Sequence record: SRR31156797_1590
DNA length: 45,978 bases
Strand: one strand, 5' to 3'
The notes under the pieces are model-generated. The model searched no databases. It was not told the origin of the DNA and saw nothing but the letters and a program-made list of their open reading frames with translations. The position numbers were made by a program, and so were the translations under genes. Shown here piece by piece: positions 3,150 to 26,305 of this stretch. The stretch's first letter is position 1, and each line of letters begins with the position of its first letter.

Positions 3150-3566
3150 CTATTTCTTTTTCTTTTCAACAGGTTCGGCCACTACGCCCATCCTGTCAAT
3201 TCCGGCGGCCTTGATTTCGCCCATGACTTTAACCACTTCACCGTAAGCAACATTCTTGTCTGCACGCAAAAAAAGCATCTTATTTTGCTTCTTGACCAAC
3301 TTCTCAAGATGAGACTGCAATTCGTCGAAACCGACCTTATATTCATCAAGGAAAATCTCGCCCTTATCGCTGATGGAAAGCACAAGGTGCTCGTTATCCT
3401 GCGGCAAAGAACGTACGGTGCGGGTCTGCGGCAAATCAACTTCAACCCCCTGAGTCATCAACGGAGCAGTAACCATGAATATGATCAGCAGCACCAGCAT
3501 GACATCCACAAAGGGAGTCACATTGATCTCAGCCAACATACCCCGATTATTAGTGGAAATTCCCAT
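3150..3566 (-). CDS. tolR: TolR (ExbD family)
   Basis: EINVTPFVDVMLVLLIIFMVTAP; LRADKNVAYGEVV. Confidence 0.92.
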   Translation of the reverse strand: MGISTNNRGMLAEINVTPFVDVMLVLLIIFMVTAPLMTQGVEVDLPQTRTVRSLPQDNEHLVLSISDKGEIFLDEYKVGFDELQSHLEKLVKKQNKMLFLRADKNVAYGEVVKVMGEIKAAGIDRMGVVAEPVEKKKK

Positions 3567-3569
3567 ACT

Positions 3570-4289
3570 CTACTCCTCCGCGGCAGAACTTTTACCGGAA
3601 GGCTCAACCCATGAGACTTCACGTTCCACACGGTTAAGGAAAGTACCTGCAAAGTTAACCAGCTCGGTCTCAATTCCATTCAACACGCCAAGAAAAAAAT
3701 TATAAAAAATGGTTGCCGGGATAGCGACACCGAGACCAATGGCTGTTGCTACCAAAGCTTCTGAAATACCGGGAGCAACTGCTGCCAGTGCGGCTGATTT
3801 TGCGGAACCGATAGCGTGGAAAGAATTCATGATCCCCCAGACAGTACCGAACAGGCCGATAAATGGGGCTCCGTTGGCGCAAGTTGCCAGAAAAGAAAGA
3901 GAAGAAGTAAGTTTTTTCATCTCAGAGCTGACCTTGCGGCGCAGGATTCGGCGCAGAGTATCTTTAATCAGGCGGCGCTTATGGCTGGCACTAACCGCAG
4001 ATTTTTCCAGCACACGGTATTCCTTTACCGCTGCTGTTCCAATACGGTTCAATGGAGAGCTTTCAGTCTTACTTATTTCAGTCAAACCGGAAGAAAGAGA
4101 ATCAGCATCTTCCATAATCTTGTTGCCCTTGAGAATCAGGGTTCTTGCCCTACCGAGGGAAATCAATTTCCAAAAGATGATTGTCCAGCTCCAAAGTGAC
4201 ATGCCCGCAAGCAGACAAAGCACACCTTTGACTACAATGGTGGCCTGATCGAGCATTGCGAAAATTCCGCCTTGAGGTAAGAAATCCAT
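3570..4289 (-). CDS. tolQ: TolQ (MotA/TolQ/ExbB family)
   Basis: APFIGLFGTVWGIMNSF; VAPGISEALVATAIGL. Confidence 0.92.
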   Translation of the reverse strand: MDFLPQGGIFAMLDQATIVVKGVLCLLAGMSLWSWTIIFWKLISLGRARTLILKGNKIMEDADSLSSGLTEISKTESSPLNRIGTAAVKEYRVLEKSAVSASHKRRLIKDTLRRILRRKVSSEMKKLTSSLSFLATCANGAPFIGLFGTVWGIMNSFHAIGSAKSAALAAVAPGISEALVATAIGLGVAIPATIFYNFFLGVLNGIETELVNFAGTFLNRVEREVSWVEPSGKSSAAEE

Positions 4290-10027: not shown

Positions 10028-10158
10028 GCGTCTTCCCCTTTCGGAAAACGCGCTTGAATTCGGACTGCAAACAGCGGGAATAAAAGGATTAACACCCCTG
10101 CGTGCCGGAGGTCCGTTACTCCCGGCCAGACGCAGTTCTCACATTTCGTCCAAAGTAC
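10028..10158 (-). ncRNA. Candidate structured 5' leader RNA of rsfS-gpmI
   Basis: GC-rich island between promoter and rsfS with three helices (10154-10148/10065-10059; 10135-10098; 10051-10028 with GAAA loop); family not recognised. Confidence 0.4.
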
Positions 10159-10164
10159 AATAAG

Positions 10165-10195
10165 ATTATATAGAGAATTTACGCCCGCTACGCAA
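10165..10195 (-). promoter_or_regulatory. Sigma70-type promoter for rsfS-gpmI
   Basis: TTGCGT (10195-10190), 17-19 nt spacer, TATATAAT (10172-10165). Confidence 0.6.
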
Positions 10196-10211
10196 TCTAT
10201 CTATAGCGGAC

Positions 10212-10247
10212 TTTTAAATCATTTTCAATTGTGAAAATTATTTTCGT
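10212..10247. promoter_or_regulatory. Tandem Fur-box-like palindromes
   Basis: TTTTAAATCATTTTCAA (10212-10228) and GTGAAAATTATTTTCGT (10231-10247), each 2 mismatches from WTGAAAATNATTTTCAW; AT-rich background lowers specificity. Confidence 0.35.
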
Positions 10248-10282
10248 TTATGAAAAAAGAACCCCGAAATTTCAATGAAATG

Positions 10283-10314
10283 TTGACGGTGGGTAAACAC
10301 TTATGTCATAAACT
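10283..10314 (+). promoter_or_regulatory. Probable promoter of the leader-paaK transcript
   Basis: TTGACG at 10283-10288; -10 ambiguous (CATAAA at 18-nt spacing or TAAACT at 10309-10314). Confidence 0.45.
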
Positions 10315-10319
10315 TCTCC

Positions 10320-10379
10320 ATGCTTAACCACGACCTTTTTTCCTTTTTCTTTTTTTTCTTTTTTAGGACTGAAATATAG
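10320..10379 (+). CDS. Phe-rich attenuator leader peptide MLNHDLFSFFFFFFFRTEI
   Basis: ATG CTT AAC CAC GAC CTT TTT TCC TTT TTC TTT TTT TTC TTT TTT AGG ACT GAA ATA TAG; 8 Phe codons, 7 consecutive; overlaps alternative RNA stems. Confidence 0.85.
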   Translation: MLNHDLFSFFFFFFFRTEI

Positions 10380-10456
10380 TCATCCCGTGGTTATGGAAAA
10401 ATACACTTACTGAGAGTTTACCGGGCCACGGGCGCAAACCCCGTGGCCTTTTTTTT
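10325..10456 (+). promoter_or_regulatory. Ribosome-mediated transcription attenuator
   Basis: 1:2 TAACCACG (10325-10332)/CGTGGTTA (10386-10393); 2:3 CCCGTGG (10384-10390)/CCACGGG (10426-10432); 3:4 terminator plus U8. Confidence 0.85.
10424..10456 (+). terminator. Attenuator terminator upstream of paaK
   Basis: GGCCACGGG-CGCAAAC-CCCGTGGCC-TTTTTTTT, about 50 nt before the paaK ATG. Confidence 0.92.
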
Positions 10457-10507
10457 ATTTTGTAACTTAAACCCTGTACCGGGATCAGCCATATCAGGAG
10501 GCAAGCG

Positions 10508-11818
10508 ATGATCTTCGACGTAGACAAGGAAACAATGCCGAGGGAAGAGCTGGAAGCATTACAGCTCAGACGTCTTAAACAGCTTTGCGAGCGCGTTTAT
10601 GCCAACGTTCCTTTTTACACCAACAAGTTTAAAGAACTGGGCATAGAACCCAAGGATATAAATTCTCTATCCGACCTGACCAGACTGCCTTTCACCGAAA
10701 AGCAGGACCTGCGCAACCACTACCCCTTCGGCCTTTTTGCTGTTTCCCGCGAGAACATCGTCCGCATCCACTCCTCTTCCGGTACCACTGGCAAGGCTAC
10801 TGTTGTCGGCTACACCAAACGCGACATCAAAAACTGGGCGGACCTGATGGCCCGTTCCTTCGCCATTGCCGGCGCAACTCCAGAAGACAGCATCCACAAC
10901 GCCTACGGCTACGGCCTTTTCACCGGGGGCCTCGGCGCACACTACGGAGCAGAAGCTCTCGGTGCGACCATCATCCCGGTTTCCGGCGGCGGTACCAGAC
11001 GCCAGATCATGCTGCTCAAAGATTTCGGTGCAGACGTAATCTGCTGCACTCCTTCCTACGCCCTGTTCCTCTACGAGACAGGTAAAGAAATGGGCATTGA
11101 TTTCAGCAAGCTGCCCCTGCGCATAGGTATTTTCGGCGCTGAGCCATGGACAGAATCCATGCGCCGCGACATCGAAAGTAAGCTGAACATCAAAGCCCTC
11201 GACATCTACGGCCTTTCCGAGATCATGGGCCCCGGTGTTGCTATGGAATGTGCCGAAGAACAAAACGGCCTACACATCATGGAAGACCACTTCCTGCCCG
11301 AGATCATCAACCCCGAAACAGGCGAGCACGTGGAACCGGGCGAGGCTGGAGAGCTGGTAATCACCACCCTGACCAAAGAAGGCATTCCGCTTATCCGCTA
11401 CCGCACTCGCGACCTGACCCGCTTGAACTACACCGCCTGCCGCTGCGGCCGCACTTTCGCCCGCATGCAGCGTATCATGGGACGCAGTGACGACATGCTC
11501 ATCATTCGCGGCGTGAACGTATTCCCGTCCCAGATCGAGTCCATCCTCATCGAAACAGAAGGTCTCTCCCCGCATTACCAGCTGGTGGTTGAACGCGACG
11601 GAAACCTCGACATCCTGACTGTAAAAGTCGAAATTTCTGGTGCCGCTTTCTCCGATGAAATTAAAAATTTACAGCGTCTCGAAAGAAAGATACAAAAAAC
11701 TATTAAGGAATTCCTTGGCGTAACCGCCCGGGTCAAACTTGTGGAACCCAAATCCATTGAACGTTCCGTAGGTAAGGCCCAGAGAATTCTCGACCTGCGT
11801 AATCAGGACCAGCAATAG
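10508..11818 (+). CDS. paaK: Phenylacetate-CoA ligase
   Basis: [68 protein letters not shown] at 10496-10501. Confidence 0.93.
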
Positions 11819-12299: not shown

Positions 12300-12339
12300 A
12301 AGGGAGATTTTAACTTGAAATAGTTAAAATCTCCCTTTT
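12300..12339 (+). terminator. Terminator of the paaK-ACT operon
   Basis: AAGGGAGATTTTAACT-TGAAAT-AGTTAAAATCTCCCTT followed by TT. Confidence 0.8.
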
Positions 12340-23602: not shown

Positions 23603-25480
23603 CTACTCGCTTAAACCAAGACCTTTACGTTTGGCCTTGATCCTTTCGTCGAAGAGTTCCGCTGCCTTGACCGGGTCCGGCTCGATGACGAATGAAGCAC
23701 CTACCAGATCCTCAAGGCCTGAAACTGCTATATTGGTTACAGTTTCGGAACCGAGAATATTCGGCGGATGTCCAAGGTGGGTATATATTCCGCTGGCTAC
23801 GGCATAGAGACCGATGGCAGCAGCTTTTTCAGAATACCACTCAGGAGAAGATGCTCCCACAGGCAGATCACTGATGTCCACATTCAGGGCATCAGCCAAC
23901 GCTGCACAAAGTTGCAGAATACGTGCGTTATCCACACAAGAACCGTAATGCAGCACCGGCGGAATTCCCAATGCGCCGCAGACTTTCTTAAGTCCCGGCC
24001 CGGCCATTTCAATGGCATCGGGAACCAGCAGTCCGGCCTTGCCTGCCGCAGTTGTTACGCATCCGGTAACCAGCACGAGGATGTCTTTCTTGATTAATTC
24101 TTTGGCAAGCCCCACGTTCATGGAATCCTGCTTAAACTTGGGGTTGTTACAGCCTACAATCCCTACGGCGCCGCGAATATCTCCCGCAGCAATAGCTTCG
24201 ACCAACGGATCGAGAGAACCGCCAAGTGCGGAAATAACAGCTTCATTGGAAAATCCAGTCATGATTTCCACCGGCTCGCAAGGAATGTCCACACGGGATG
24301 CATCACGCGCGGAATAGGCTTCCACCGCCAGACGGACAATCTCGCAAGCCTGCTCATAGGCATTGTGCGGATGGATATCAAAATGAGTTGCTCCGGTAAA
24401 ACGAGCCTTAGCTGCGGTGTCGATGAATCTGGTATGGTAACATCCGGATATCTGCACCAGACTAGGCATGATACACTGATAATCAACAACCACGGCCTCG
24501 ACCGCTCCGGTCAGGATTGCCAGCTCTGTCATAAGATGGTTCCCGGCCATGGGAATGCCTTTACGCATGAGCAATTCGTTACCGGTACAACAAAGCCCTG
24601 CGATATTAATACCTGCTGCCCCGGCGGCTTTTGCTTCAGCAACAATTTCTGGATCACGGGAAGCAGCCAAAATCATCTCGGAAACAACGGGATTGTGACC
24701 ATGAACAAGAATATTGACCTTATCTTCCTTGATCACCCCAAGGTTGGCCTGCGACATGGACGGGGTCGGGGTTCCGAAAATAACATCTGAAAGCTCAGTA
24801 CCGATCATGGAACCGCCCCAGCCGTCAGCAAGTGAAGTCCGGGCAGCATGAAGAAGAGTATTAGGCGCGTCATTATCACAACCCATGTGAGTGCGGTGCA
24901 TCATTTCTGCAATTTCGCGGTCAACACCGCGCGGTGTTACACCCAGATTAGACCATATGTCCTTGCGCTTCTGAGGTACGCGGGAAAGAAAGGAAACCTG
25001 TTTTTTACGGCTACCGAAGTCGGCAAAGAAACATTCCATAGCATCGCGGGCAACATCCTTAATATCACGCCCTTCAGTTTCAATACCTATTTCAGCGGAA
25101 ATACGGCGTAGTTTATCCTCGTCGGTAATTTTATAATCCTTGGTTTCGCCCTCAACAATCGCCTCAAGCACTTCGATCAAATCACGTCCATGATCTGAAT
25201 GACCTGCAGCTCCCCCGGCAACAAAACGACCGAAATTCCTTGCCACCACAACATCCGCATCAGCACCGCATACACCGCGCGGAGATTTCGGGGTGATTTT
25301 ACACGGCCCCATGGTACAGATACGGCAGCTGGTACCAAGCTCGCAAAATTTACAGTGCGGAGTCTGCTGCTGTAGCCTTTCGTGCACAGTCTCAATGCCC
25401 TCGGCACGAGCTTTGTTGATCATTGCGCGGGCATCATCCCAGATTGTCAATTCTTCAGCCGGACGGGGTTCTTTTGCCAT
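23603..25480 (-). CDS. cooS: Ni,Fe carbon monoxide dehydrogenase
   Basis: CRICTMGPC/GVCG B-cluster, HSDH, HGHNP, CCTGNE, GCNN, TGC, GSCVDN, EKA; ATG 25480 behind GGAGG. Confidence 0.97.
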   Translation of the reverse strand: MAKEPRPAEELTIWDDARAMINKARAEGIETVHERLQQQTPHCKFCELGTSCRICTMGPCKITPKSPRGVCGADADVVVARNFGRFVAGGAAGHSDHGRDLIEVLEAIVEGETKDYKITDEDKLRRISAEIGIETEGRDIKDVARDAMECFFADFGSRKKQVSFLSRVPQKRKDIWSNLGVTPRGVDREIAEMMHRTHMGCDNDAPNTLLHAARTSLADGWGGSMIGTELSDVIFGTPTPSMSQANLGVIKEDKVNILVHGHNPVVSEMILAASRDPEIVAEAKAAGAAGINIAGLCCTGNELLMRKGIPMAGNHLMTELAILTGAVEAVVVDYQCIMPSLVQISGCYHTRFIDTAAKARFTGATHFDIHPHNAYEQACEIVRLAVEAYSARDASRVDIPCEPVEIMTGFSNEAVISALGGSLDPLVEAIAAGDIRGAVGIVGCNNPKFKQDSMNVGLAKELIKKDILVLVTGCVTTAAGKAGLLVPDAIEMAGPGLKKVCGALGIPPVLHYGSCVDNARILQLCAALADALNVDISDLPVGASSPEWYSEKAAAIGLYAVASGIYTHLGHPPNILGSETVTNIAVSGLEDLVGASFVIEPDPVKAAELFDERIKAKRKGLGLSE

Positions 25481-25572
25481 TAACCTATCCTCCCTGTTTT
25501 GCCGGAAGCACAAAAATTATCGCTCCCGATCCATTCCTGTTATACTAACGTAACAAGTCTGAAACATTTTGT

Positions 25573-25654: not shown

Positions 25655-26305
25655 CTAATTTTCAGCGAATCCTTTCAACTGCTCCAAGTCAGCAACAAGC
25701 CAATGAGAACGGTCAATACGAAAAAGAATTCCTTCACGGGTGAGGTTGTTCAATAAAGTTGATACGGTCTGACGGGTAGCACCAAGAAGAGTGGAAAGCT
25801 GTTCGGTGGTCAGATTAAGGTTGATCTCTATTCCGCCGTCAACGGGCTTTCCGTATTCGGAGGCTTCTTTGTATAGATAGGAACAGAGCCGGGAGTTGAT
25901 ATCCTTGAAAACTAATCCATTAATTACGGAAAAAGAATTTTGCAGAATCTTACCCAAGACACGGACCATGGTGCGATTAAAGATAGGAATATCAGCCATA
26001 CAACGTTTTACCGACTGCACATCGGTAGTCAGCAGCATGCCGTCTTCGTAAGCCTGTACAAAACATCCGGCATGGGTTGAATAAAGATCTCCGGGACCGA
26101 GAATTCCAAGAGTAAATTCTTTGGATTCGTAAGCAAGATAAATACGCACCCGCCCTTTTGCCACTATAAAAACAAGGTCTTCATCTGTCTCAGGAGCAAA
26201 TATTATGGCACCTTTTTTAAACCTGCGCTCACCAAAGACACTGCGAATATCTTCAAATTCTACACGTTCCAGTTCATCCAGAAGATTGATACCGGAAAAT
26301 TTCAT
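25655..26305 (-). CDS. cooA: CRP/FNR-family CO-sensing regulator CooA
   Basis: cNMP-like domain with YSTH (candidate heme His), LVFKDINSRL, HTH GATRQTVSTLLN; adjacent to cooS. Confidence 0.87.
   Translation of the reverse strand: MKFSGINLLDELERVEFEDIRSVFGERRFKKGAIIFAPETDEDLVFIVAKGRVRIYLAYESKEFTLGILGPGDLYSTHAGCFVQAYEDGMLLTTDVQSVKRCMADIPIFNRTMVRVLGKILQNSFSVINGLVFKDINSRLCSYLYKEASEYGKPVDGGIEINLNLTTEQLSTLLGATRQTVSTLLNNLTREGILFRIDRSHWLVADLEQLKGFAEN

Follow-up and report, generated by a model that had tools for sequence, protein, structure and literature searches.

A run of phenylalanine (Phe) codons followed by an intrinsic terminator stands in front of a gene for a phenylacetate-CoA ligase, an enzyme usually placed in aromatic catabolism. 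Why would such a gene be controlled by the supply of Phe? The question is raised by positions 10320-10456 of the DNA stretch SRR31156797_1590, which was analysed over its whole length of 45978 bases and is called the window hereafter. An earlier note on this DNA had proposed that the element is a ribosome-mediated Phe attenuator of the pheL/trpL geometry, and had found it puzzling that a catabolic ligase should be its target. Here, the element was compared with its counterparts in related genomes. The comparative evidence supports the first part of that proposal: the element is, with high probability, a ribosome-mediated, Phe-sensing transcription attenuator of an operon that comprises a PaaK-like ligase gene and an ACT-domain gene (paaK-ACT). 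The element is conserved in marine sulfate-reducing bacteria, and its regulatory logic suggests an anabolic role for the ligase in place of a catabolic one.

The leader open reading frame (ORF) has its start codon ATG at 10320 and its stop codon TAG at 10377-10379. Eight of its 19 codons specify Phe, six as TTT and two as TTC. The window has a single run of seven TTY codons in its 45978 bases, and no such run arose in 100 dinucleotide shuffles. The ORF overlaps a set of mutually exclusive stems that are formed by four segments (Table 1). The 1:2 inverted repeat pairs 10325-10332 with 10386-10393 over 8 nucleotides (nt), the 2:3 repeat pairs 10384-10390 with 10426-10432 over 7 nt, and the 3:4 repeat pairs 10424-10432 with 10440-10448 over 9 nt; all three are 100% complementary. 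A terminator scan listed a terminator-like site at 10423-10449 with 10 pairs, eight of them G-C, and a T run next to it. A further small hairpin encloses the stop codon and may be a pause element. The earlier note had described the 19-codon ORF with its 8 Phe, the Cs that interrupt the T run at third positions, the three stems and a U8 tract, and all of these were found as described. RNA folding, which it had suggested as a check, gave -36.0 kcal/mol for the 146-nt leader, compared with -24.9 ± 3.3 kcal/mol for 200 shuffles (z -3.35), of which one was as good.

Table 1 Features of the Phe leader and of the operon behind it (positions in the window).
Feature	Position	Strand	Remarks
-35-like box TTGACG	10283..10288	+	Invariant in an alignment of 8 sequences
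TG-n-CATAAA, candidate extended -10	10304..10312	+	Ends 7 nt before the ATG
Leader ORF MLNHDLFSFFFFFFFRTEI*	10320..10379	+	19 codons; no upstream Shine-Dalgarno sequence
Segment 1 TAACCACG	10325..10332	+	Within codons 2-5
Regulatory codons	10338..10364	+	Codon 7 Phe, codon 8 Ser, then seven Phe in a row at 10344-10364
Small hairpin GACTG/TAGTC	10367..10381	+	Stop codon inside the 3' arm
Segment 2 CCCGTGGTTA	10384..10393	+	Partner of segment 1 or segment 3; begins 5 nt past the stop codon
Segment 3 GGGCCACGGG	10423..10432	+	Common to antiterminator (2:3) and terminator (3:4)
Segment 4 CCCGTGGCCT and eight T (10449-10456)	10440..10456	+	Intrinsic terminator with segment 3
AGGAGG, Shine-Dalgarno sequence of the ligase gene	10496..10501	+	Read from the sequence
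PaaK-like aryl-acid (phenylacetate)-CoA ligase, 436 amino acids	10508..11818	+	AMP-binding and AMP-binding_C_2 (Pfam)
ACT-domain-pair protein (ACT_8), 148 amino acids	11830..12276	+	Second gene of the operon
Terminator-like hairpin	12300..12337	+	End of the paaK-ACT operon, before rtcB

The comparison was made on relatives, for which species-representative genomes were scanned with the ligase. This gave 33 loci, the nearest of which belong, by their titles, to Maridesulfovibrio. The upstream regions of 32 loci were inspected; L030, where the match begins at a contig end, was omitted. The leader ORF is found in 7 of the 32 (L001-L006 and L031), where the ligase is 92-99% identical. At L007-L009 (87-88% identity), the promoter and the terminator are kept and the ATG is absent. 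No Phe ORF was seen by eye at the more distant Desulfovibrionaceae paaK loci L010-L024 (67-77% identity). A covariance model, R1, built from eight leaders, has a single copy in the window. Among 26 genomes with Maridesulfovibrio titles, it gave 17 strong copies (117-178 bits) and three weak ones (G006, G007 and G008), while six genomes had none. All 20 copies directly precede a paaK orthologue, with identities of 84-99%.

For the alignment, the leader of the window was combined with 16 of the 17 strong copies (G005 was omitted) and with G006, to give 18 sequences. The ORF is kept in every one of them, with 19 codons in 16 leaders, 16 codons in G016 and 21 in G006. Sixteen of the 18 have 7-10 Phe, and at the Phe positions TTT and TTC are swapped synonymously. 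The peptide residues outside the Phe run vary freely. The distance from the stop codon to GTGGTTAT in segment 2 is 10 nt in 18/18. Within the ORFs, the insertions and deletions seen in the two aligned families of leaders (-9 nt in G016, +6 in G006 and, in the paralogous family described below, -3 in G011) are all in frame, and all three fall in slippery T runs. From segment 2 to the terminator loop, the gaps are 1-3 columns wide. In G006, the stop codon is TGA in place of TAG, and the stem of the stop hairpin is rebuilt as GACTC/GAGTC. A comparison of paaK upstream regions had been recommended in the earlier note; in the Maridesulfovibrio relatives, the Phe-codon ORF, its frame and the position of its stop codon proved to be conserved. 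A search of five related genomes for six TTY codons gave 15 matches; apart from the paaK leader, these were judged by eye to be plain T18 or to fall inside long tracts of apparent coding sequence on the other strand.

At four loci (L067, L068, L008 and L009), the ATG is replaced by AGG and the Phe run is broken, with the terminator hairpin and the T run still present before paaK. Either the attenuator has decayed there or control works differently.

Pairing in the stems is well maintained across the 18 sequences. In the terminator, 180/180 cells of the alignment are paired, and in the antiterminator 99.4% of 162. Helix 1:2 has 95.1% of 144 cells paired, with four pairs that vary one-sidedly, and the stop-codon hairpin has 95.6% of 90. 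When, as a control, the 3' partners were slid by 1-3 columns, 27-55% of the cells were paired. Most of the variation in the stems is one-sided, from A-U to G-U or from C-G to U-G. In G026, a base of segment 3 (column 122) is changed from G to A, and its partners in segment 4 and in segment 2 are both changed from C to U, as is predicted for one base that is common to two mutually exclusive helices. Given no structure, RNAalifold returned the core of 1:2, the stop hairpin and the terminator. Compensatory stem changes, which the earlier note had proposed to look for, are thus present in the form of maintained pairing and of the three-way change in G026, with modest statistics.

Besides the paaK leader, the genus-wide search with R1 picked up a further, lower-scoring match (35-43 bits) in 16 of the 26 genomes, which corresponds to a paralogous attenuator. 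Examples are located at G001:C1:388376-388526 on the plus strand (L080:177-327) and at G004:C1:1624160-1624314 on the minus strand. Its leader peptide, MNTNKALFFFFNFFSFTSPVVWRCSLA, has 7 Phe; a TTGACA box is found upstream, and the ATG has no Shine-Dalgarno sequence. The antiterminator is composed of 12 base pairs between CCUGUGGUCUGG and CCAGGCCGCAGG (-20.4 kcal/mol), and the terminator of GGCCGCAGGC and GCCCGCGGCC followed by a T run (-22.1 kcal/mol). Segments 2, 3 and 4 read CCCGUGG, CCACGGG and CCCGUGG in the paaK leader and CCUGUGG, CCGCAGG and CCCGCGG in this second leader, so that 2:3 and 3:4 each show a single two-sided change. The gene that follows all 16 copies encodes a 'symporter small accessory protein' of 53 amino acids (NF045580); at L080, the gene for a sodium:solute symporter (SSS) of 532 amino acids comes next.

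Similar leaders are not confined to Phe alone. In G001, the aromatic operon that encodes ADH synthase, DHQ synthase II and chorismate mutase/prephenate dehydratase is preceded by a like-built leader, MQTFNTIGTGLSYFFYFFYFWCTHACGRVEVCSYKK, at L098 (G001:C1:1041500-1048500; reverse strand, about 3530-3760 of the reverse complement), with a terminator present. The codons of this aro leader are a mixture of Phe, Tyr and Trp (...SYFFYFFYFW...). A search of 151 sampled genomes of the Desulfovibrionaceae gave matches in 16, two being Maridesulfovibrio. At 13 of the 15 other loci, the leader stands before ADH-synthase-like genes, with mixed Phe/Tyr/Trp codons in some; three loci were checked with NCBIfam, and the remaining assignments of ADH synthase were by N-terminal similarity. 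The leaders at L113, L101, L108 and L105 have Phe runs and no Trp, with one Tyr at L105. At L113 (G061) and L101 (G050), a Phe-only leader precedes a second, monocistronic paralogue of ADH synthase, which was confirmed. In the distant relative G048, a leader MITTSTFSFFTSFFFFWGFFFRNSR is located before paaK-ACT, with a ligase that is 70% identical, and in G030 a leader is located before a small protein and a symporter. The aro leaders of relatives have TTGAC about 36 nt before the ATG, a segment 2 that resembles CCUGUGG, and a terminator of the type GGCCGC..GCGGCC. Because these aro leaders have a like build, the paaK leader can be described as a paralogue within an aromatic leader superfamily. 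Across this superfamily, aromatic codons are conserved, as far as the gene assignments go, ahead of genes for the supply of aromatic amino acids; and since the like-built paralogues control genuine genes for the biosynthesis of aromatic amino acids, the paaK leader is of the biosynthesis type. A broader proposal, to which we give about even odds, is that the Desulfovibrionaceae as a family possess a set of leaderless attenuators with aromatic leader peptides, and that in Maridesulfovibrio, and at least in G048 and G030, Phe-only members of this set have been recruited to the symporter and to the PaaK-like ligase with its ACT protein, as an anabolic Phe-starvation regulon.

The region upstream of the leader ORF has the features of a promoter at a fixed distance. 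Counted from the T of TTGAC, the distance to the ATG is 36-38 nt in 18/18 paaK leaders and in all 15 symporter leaders evaluated, and it is 36 and 37 nt in two further leaders; the aro leaders have, by eye, a similar spacing. The motif CTTATG is invariant in the alignment of eight sequences, and the 13-14 nt from it to the ATG vary in sequence and are fixed in length (±1). No Shine-Dalgarno sequence precedes the leader ATG, whereas the ligase gene has AGGAGG. With a spacer of 17-18 nt and a hexamer at -10, transcription would start on the A of the ATG or 1-2 nt upstream of it. The leader peptide is therefore somewhat likely to be translated from a leaderless mRNA, the 5' end of which is deduced from this geometry.

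Other features of this upstream region were also noticed. Between the -35 and -10 elements, both Maridesulfovibrio Phe-leader promoters have the motif GTAAA-N2-3-CTTA(C/T) (window 10291-10305; L069-L078), which in the symporter promoter makes the near-palindrome AGTAAATGCTTACT. It was considered as an operator for a transcription factor, and it is absent from G048, from G030 and from the aro leaders; the motif could be an operator or merely reflect shared ancestry. An inverted repeat of 10 nt, 90% complementary, connects 10292-10301 in the promoter spacer (GGTAAACACT) with 10413-10422, a conserved AGAGTTTACC just 5' of the terminator; its first arm would be outside the RNA if transcription begins at the ATG. 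A weak Rfam match to an enteroviral 3' UTR element (Entero_OriR; 10158-10272, minus strand; 22.8 bits against 80, E 0.036) lies in the A/T-rich divergent promoter region that separates rsfS from the leader, and was taken as chance.

From this anatomy, we infer the following working scheme. Transcription would begin at the leader ATG or 1-2 nt before it, and a ribosome would load on the 5'-terminal AUG without a Shine-Dalgarno sequence. With ample Phe-tRNA, the ribosome would reach the stop codon at 10377-10379, where its footprint would lie over the 5' part of segment 2 (10384-10390). With segment 2 masked, segments 3 and 4 would pair, and RNA polymerase would terminate at the U8 tract. A ribosome covers about 12-15 nt ahead of its A site; with such a footprint assumed, a stop codon 5 nt before segment 2 is in a position that fits the covering of segment 2 by a terminating ribosome. 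When Phe-tRNA is scarce, the ribosome would stall early in the Phe codons, with 10338, 10344 or 10347 in its A site, and would lie over segment 1 (10325-10332). With segment 1 masked, segment 2 would take segment 3 before segment 4 exists, and the polymerase would read through into paaK-ACT. In the absence of translation, 1:2 would form and transcription would terminate. The two Phe-leader operons would together make a Phe-starvation regulon, in which phenylacetate is taken up and activated and is then converted to phenylalanine by an indolepyruvate/arylpyruvate ferredoxin oxidoreductase and a transaminase.

Such a role is suggested by gene order in other phyla. At two Actinomycetota loci (L026 and L028), orthologues of both symporter-operon proteins (51-52% and 41-51% identity) are encoded directly before the paaK orthologue, and the gene order is iorA, iorB, ACT_8, small protein, symporter, paaK, second paaK. 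A Eubacteriales locus and a Termititenax locus have the order paaK2, iorA, iorB, paaK, ACT_8. By these gene orders, the two Phe-leader operons of Maridesulfovibrio are elsewhere one gene cluster, joined to iorAB-type genes. In G001, the region upstream of the iorA orthologue has no leader, and no aromatic leader is found before the nearer paaK paralogues (49% and 43% identity) of G001 and G004. The PaaA/PaaC ring oxygenase family (PF05138), which comprises the ring 1,2-epoxidase subunits of the aerobic paa pathway, was found in 0/5 related genomes and in 4/14 control genomes. The puzzle of a Phe attenuator on a catabolic ligase dissolves because the orthologue clusters with iorAB, the ACT-pair gene and the symporter in other phyla, because PaaA/PaaC was not found in 5/5 relatives, and because the second Phe leader precedes that same symporter. 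Regulation and gene neighbourhoods leave it roughly a toss-up whether the PaaK-like ligase and the symporter in fact lead from phenylacetate to phenylalanine.

Could the leader sense something other than Phe-tRNA? Attenuation of pyrBI is sensitive to uridine triphosphate (UTP), and in an element of that kind the polymerase would pause or slip in the U tract at low UTP, the Phe codons being incidental. The T run, nearly homopolymeric and about 30 nt long, with the terminator right behind it, would suit such a UTP-sensing or transcript-slippage element, as would the weak Rfam Phe_leader match, which owes mostly to U-richness and to the terminator. Its cargo, however, is unrelated to pyrimidines, and frame, ATG, stop position and in-frame indels are conserved. 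Moreover, the like-built paralogues, which control aromatic biosynthesis, swap the T runs for runs of aromatic codons that contain TAT, TAC and TGG. That the superfamily keeps the amino-acid class and not the U content argues against UTP sensing, which we regard as extremely improbable and as the least probable of the alternatives considered here. Hairpins alone would also permit switching by a factor in trans, for example an RNA-binding protein that binds Phe or an uncharged tRNA, in which case the ORF would not be the sensor. The operon does encode an ACT-pair protein, which has a ligand-binding fold, and G007 and G008 retain the terminator without the ORF. Nevertheless, the T-box and other Rfam families all scored below threshold, Pfam gave no RNA-binding domain in the ACT protein, and a trans-acting factor leaves unexplained why the spacing between stop codon and segment 2, and that between promoter and ATG, are fixed and why the indels are in frame. 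We consider switching by such a factor very unlikely.

The leader might also be an independent small gene, for a hydrophobic peptide of 19 residues or for a terminated small RNA that acts in trans, with a terminator that merely ends this gene. It would be freed as a terminated RNA of about 137 nt, and there is a precedent in Sinorhizobium meliloti, where, according to passages of PMC7298713, both the RNA of an attenuator and its peptide can have functions in trans. Against a small gene of this type, the peptide varies freely outside the Phe run, segment 2 competes and covaries with the terminator, and the element is always located directly 5' of paaK on the same strand. A role in trans would supplement attenuation and not replace it, and there is hardly any likelihood that it is the whole explanation.

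The ribosome-mediated Phe attenuator has its own difficulties, and the following observations weigh against it. In the window, helices 1:2, 2:3 and 3:4 have energies of -7.9, -13.0 and -20.2 kcal/mol, so 1:2 is weak and the terminator outdoes the antiterminator at equilibrium. The terminator also persisted in 4/4 ribosome-masked equilibrium folds of the full leader, and a truncated leader that forms 2:3 is not more stable than shuffles (z 0.10). Because the terminator is more stable, the antiterminator can win only kinetically, as it does in the classical systems. If the ribosome stalled at the end of the Phe run, segment 1, and with it the 1:2 helix, would be left free. The leaders of G016 and G026 carry only 4 Phe, and in G007 and G008 (L067 and L068) the ATG is lost (AGG) and the terminator retained. 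Covariation is thin, with one two-sided change per helix in a single lineage among 18 close orthologues, and the observed covariation scores were reached by 26 and 31 of 500 shuffles. A strict scan for consensus promoters listed no site at the leader. The Rfam model Phe_leader (RF01859) matches 10329-10456 with 19.5 bits (E 1.5), below its gathering threshold of 55. The phenylacetate role of the ligase is suggested by regulation and gene neighbourhoods only. Lastly, the RNA runs examined contained only 5-8% of the sampled words, with matching contigs that belong to relatives; runs X1, X3 and X4 give zero cover of 10271-10483, and X10 is of undefined kind.

The operon behind the leader consists of the paaK-like ligase gene and the ACT gene. 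With the NCBIfam equivalog TIGR02155 (PaaK), the ligase scored 621.2 bits over its full length, just below the cut-off of 646.3, and for this reason 'PaaK-like' is the safe name. The pairing of the ligase orthologue with the ACT gene is also found at L007, L008, L017, L025 and L029. At L007 and L008, the ACT gene is followed by a gene for an Hpt-domain protein, so rtcB is not a conserved member of the operon. The hairpin between the ACT gene and rtcB is long and A/T-rich, with 16 pairs followed by TTCATTT. Upstream of the leader, rsfS is divergently oriented. A contig of RNA run X1 that covers 10488-11103 carries 26 loose letters, which match, in reverse complement, what follows the terminator in a relative and were taken as an assembly or snap-back artefact. 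Elsewhere in the window, the gene for an anaerobic CO dehydrogenase catalytic subunit (23603-25513, minus strand) adjoins that of a Crp/Fnr-family regulator (25655-26305, minus strand), an ordinary context that has no relation to the leader.

When one amino acid is in short supply, a leader-peptide attenuator reveals what the cell wants more of. That a PaaK-like ligase and a symporter both carry a Phe-only leader, in relatives where the PaaA/PaaC family was not found, is a regulatory argument for the supply of Phe from phenylacetate, a common fermentation product in anoxic sediments. If it is true, environmental phenylacetate would be imported, activated to phenylacetyl-CoA, reductively carboxylated (iorAB) to phenylpyruvate and converted to phenylalanine. 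The regulatory codons would then label the substrate, the PaaK paralogue and the symporter would be specific for phenylacetate, and the 'phenylacetate-CoA ligase' of strict anaerobes would be biosynthetic and not catabolic. The old idea that anaerobes use aryl acids to make aromatic amino acids thereby becomes directly testable in sulfate reducers, and both the ACT-pair protein and the uncharacterised symporter, together with its small accessory protein, gain candidate substrates. The amino-acid attenuators of the Desulfovibrionaceae would form a diversified, probably leaderless superfamily that Rfam models do not detect.

How does this leader compare with systems that are already described? 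In the Rfam scan, no family reached its threshold; isrD, suhB and others were far below their gathering scores and were taken as chance. Passages of PMC3082878 describe pheL genes as short, with internal Phe runs, and there name Bacteroides and Desulfobacterium autotrophicum alone as possible users of pheL outside Proteobacteria. A possible gammaproteobacterial origin of amino-acid attenuators is suggested in a section of PMC3766115. A full-text literature search gave no leader peptide or attenuator tied to a phenylacetate-CoA ligase or to the symporter; supplements and subscription journals lie outside such a search, and a prior mention is possible. The words attenuator, leader peptide, aromatic and phenylalanine are all absent from PMC545781. 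The metabolic role proposed for the PaaK-like ligase and the symporter corresponds to the aryl-acid route of Methanococcus maripaludis, an archaeon in which aryl acids are precursors of aromatic amino acids (Porat et al., cited in PMC4162585); leader-peptide control is not mentioned in the part of PMC4162585 that describes this route.

Like the pheL-pheA leader of Escherichia coli (RF01859), the paaK leader has a short ORF with a Phe run, three stems (1:2, 2:3 and 3:4) that exclude one another, and an intrinsic terminator in front of the gene. It differs from pheL in having no Shine-Dalgarno sequence, a probable leaderless start, and a segment 1 that lies before the Phe run and not in it. It stands before genes for a PaaK-like ligase and an ACT protein and not before pheA, its host belongs to the Desulfovibrionaceae, and there is no detectable homology between the two leaders. 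A putative attenuator before the aroA'-aroB'-pheA-aroF-tyrA-trp supraoperon of Desulfovibrio vulgaris is listed in Table 7 of PMC1173090, taken there from Merino's attenuator website, and a like-built leader was found before this type of operon in relatives. That leader has Phe, Tyr and Trp codons and precedes genes for de novo synthesis, whereas the paaK leader is Phe-only and precedes an aryl-acid ligase. For a leaderless start, the closest parallel is trpL of Sinorhizobium meliloti (rnTrpL/peTrpL), the RNA of which, as stated in a portion of PMC7298713, has its 5' end at the ATG of the leader ORF; there, the codons are for Trp, the cargo is trpE(G) and the start was mapped experimentally, while that of the paaK leader is deduced from promoter geometry. 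Leaderless short ORFs with polycysteine runs attenuate downstream operons in mycobacteria, according to excerpts of bioRxiv 10.1101/834739; as far as those excerpts describe them, they share with the paaK leader a run of codons for a single amino acid and a leaderless start, and differ in phylum, amino acid and cargo. The principle of the paaK leader is therefore the classical one of the textbook pheL/trpL kind, and what differs is a separate sequence family, a probable leaderless start, and an unusual cargo that comes with a functional prediction.

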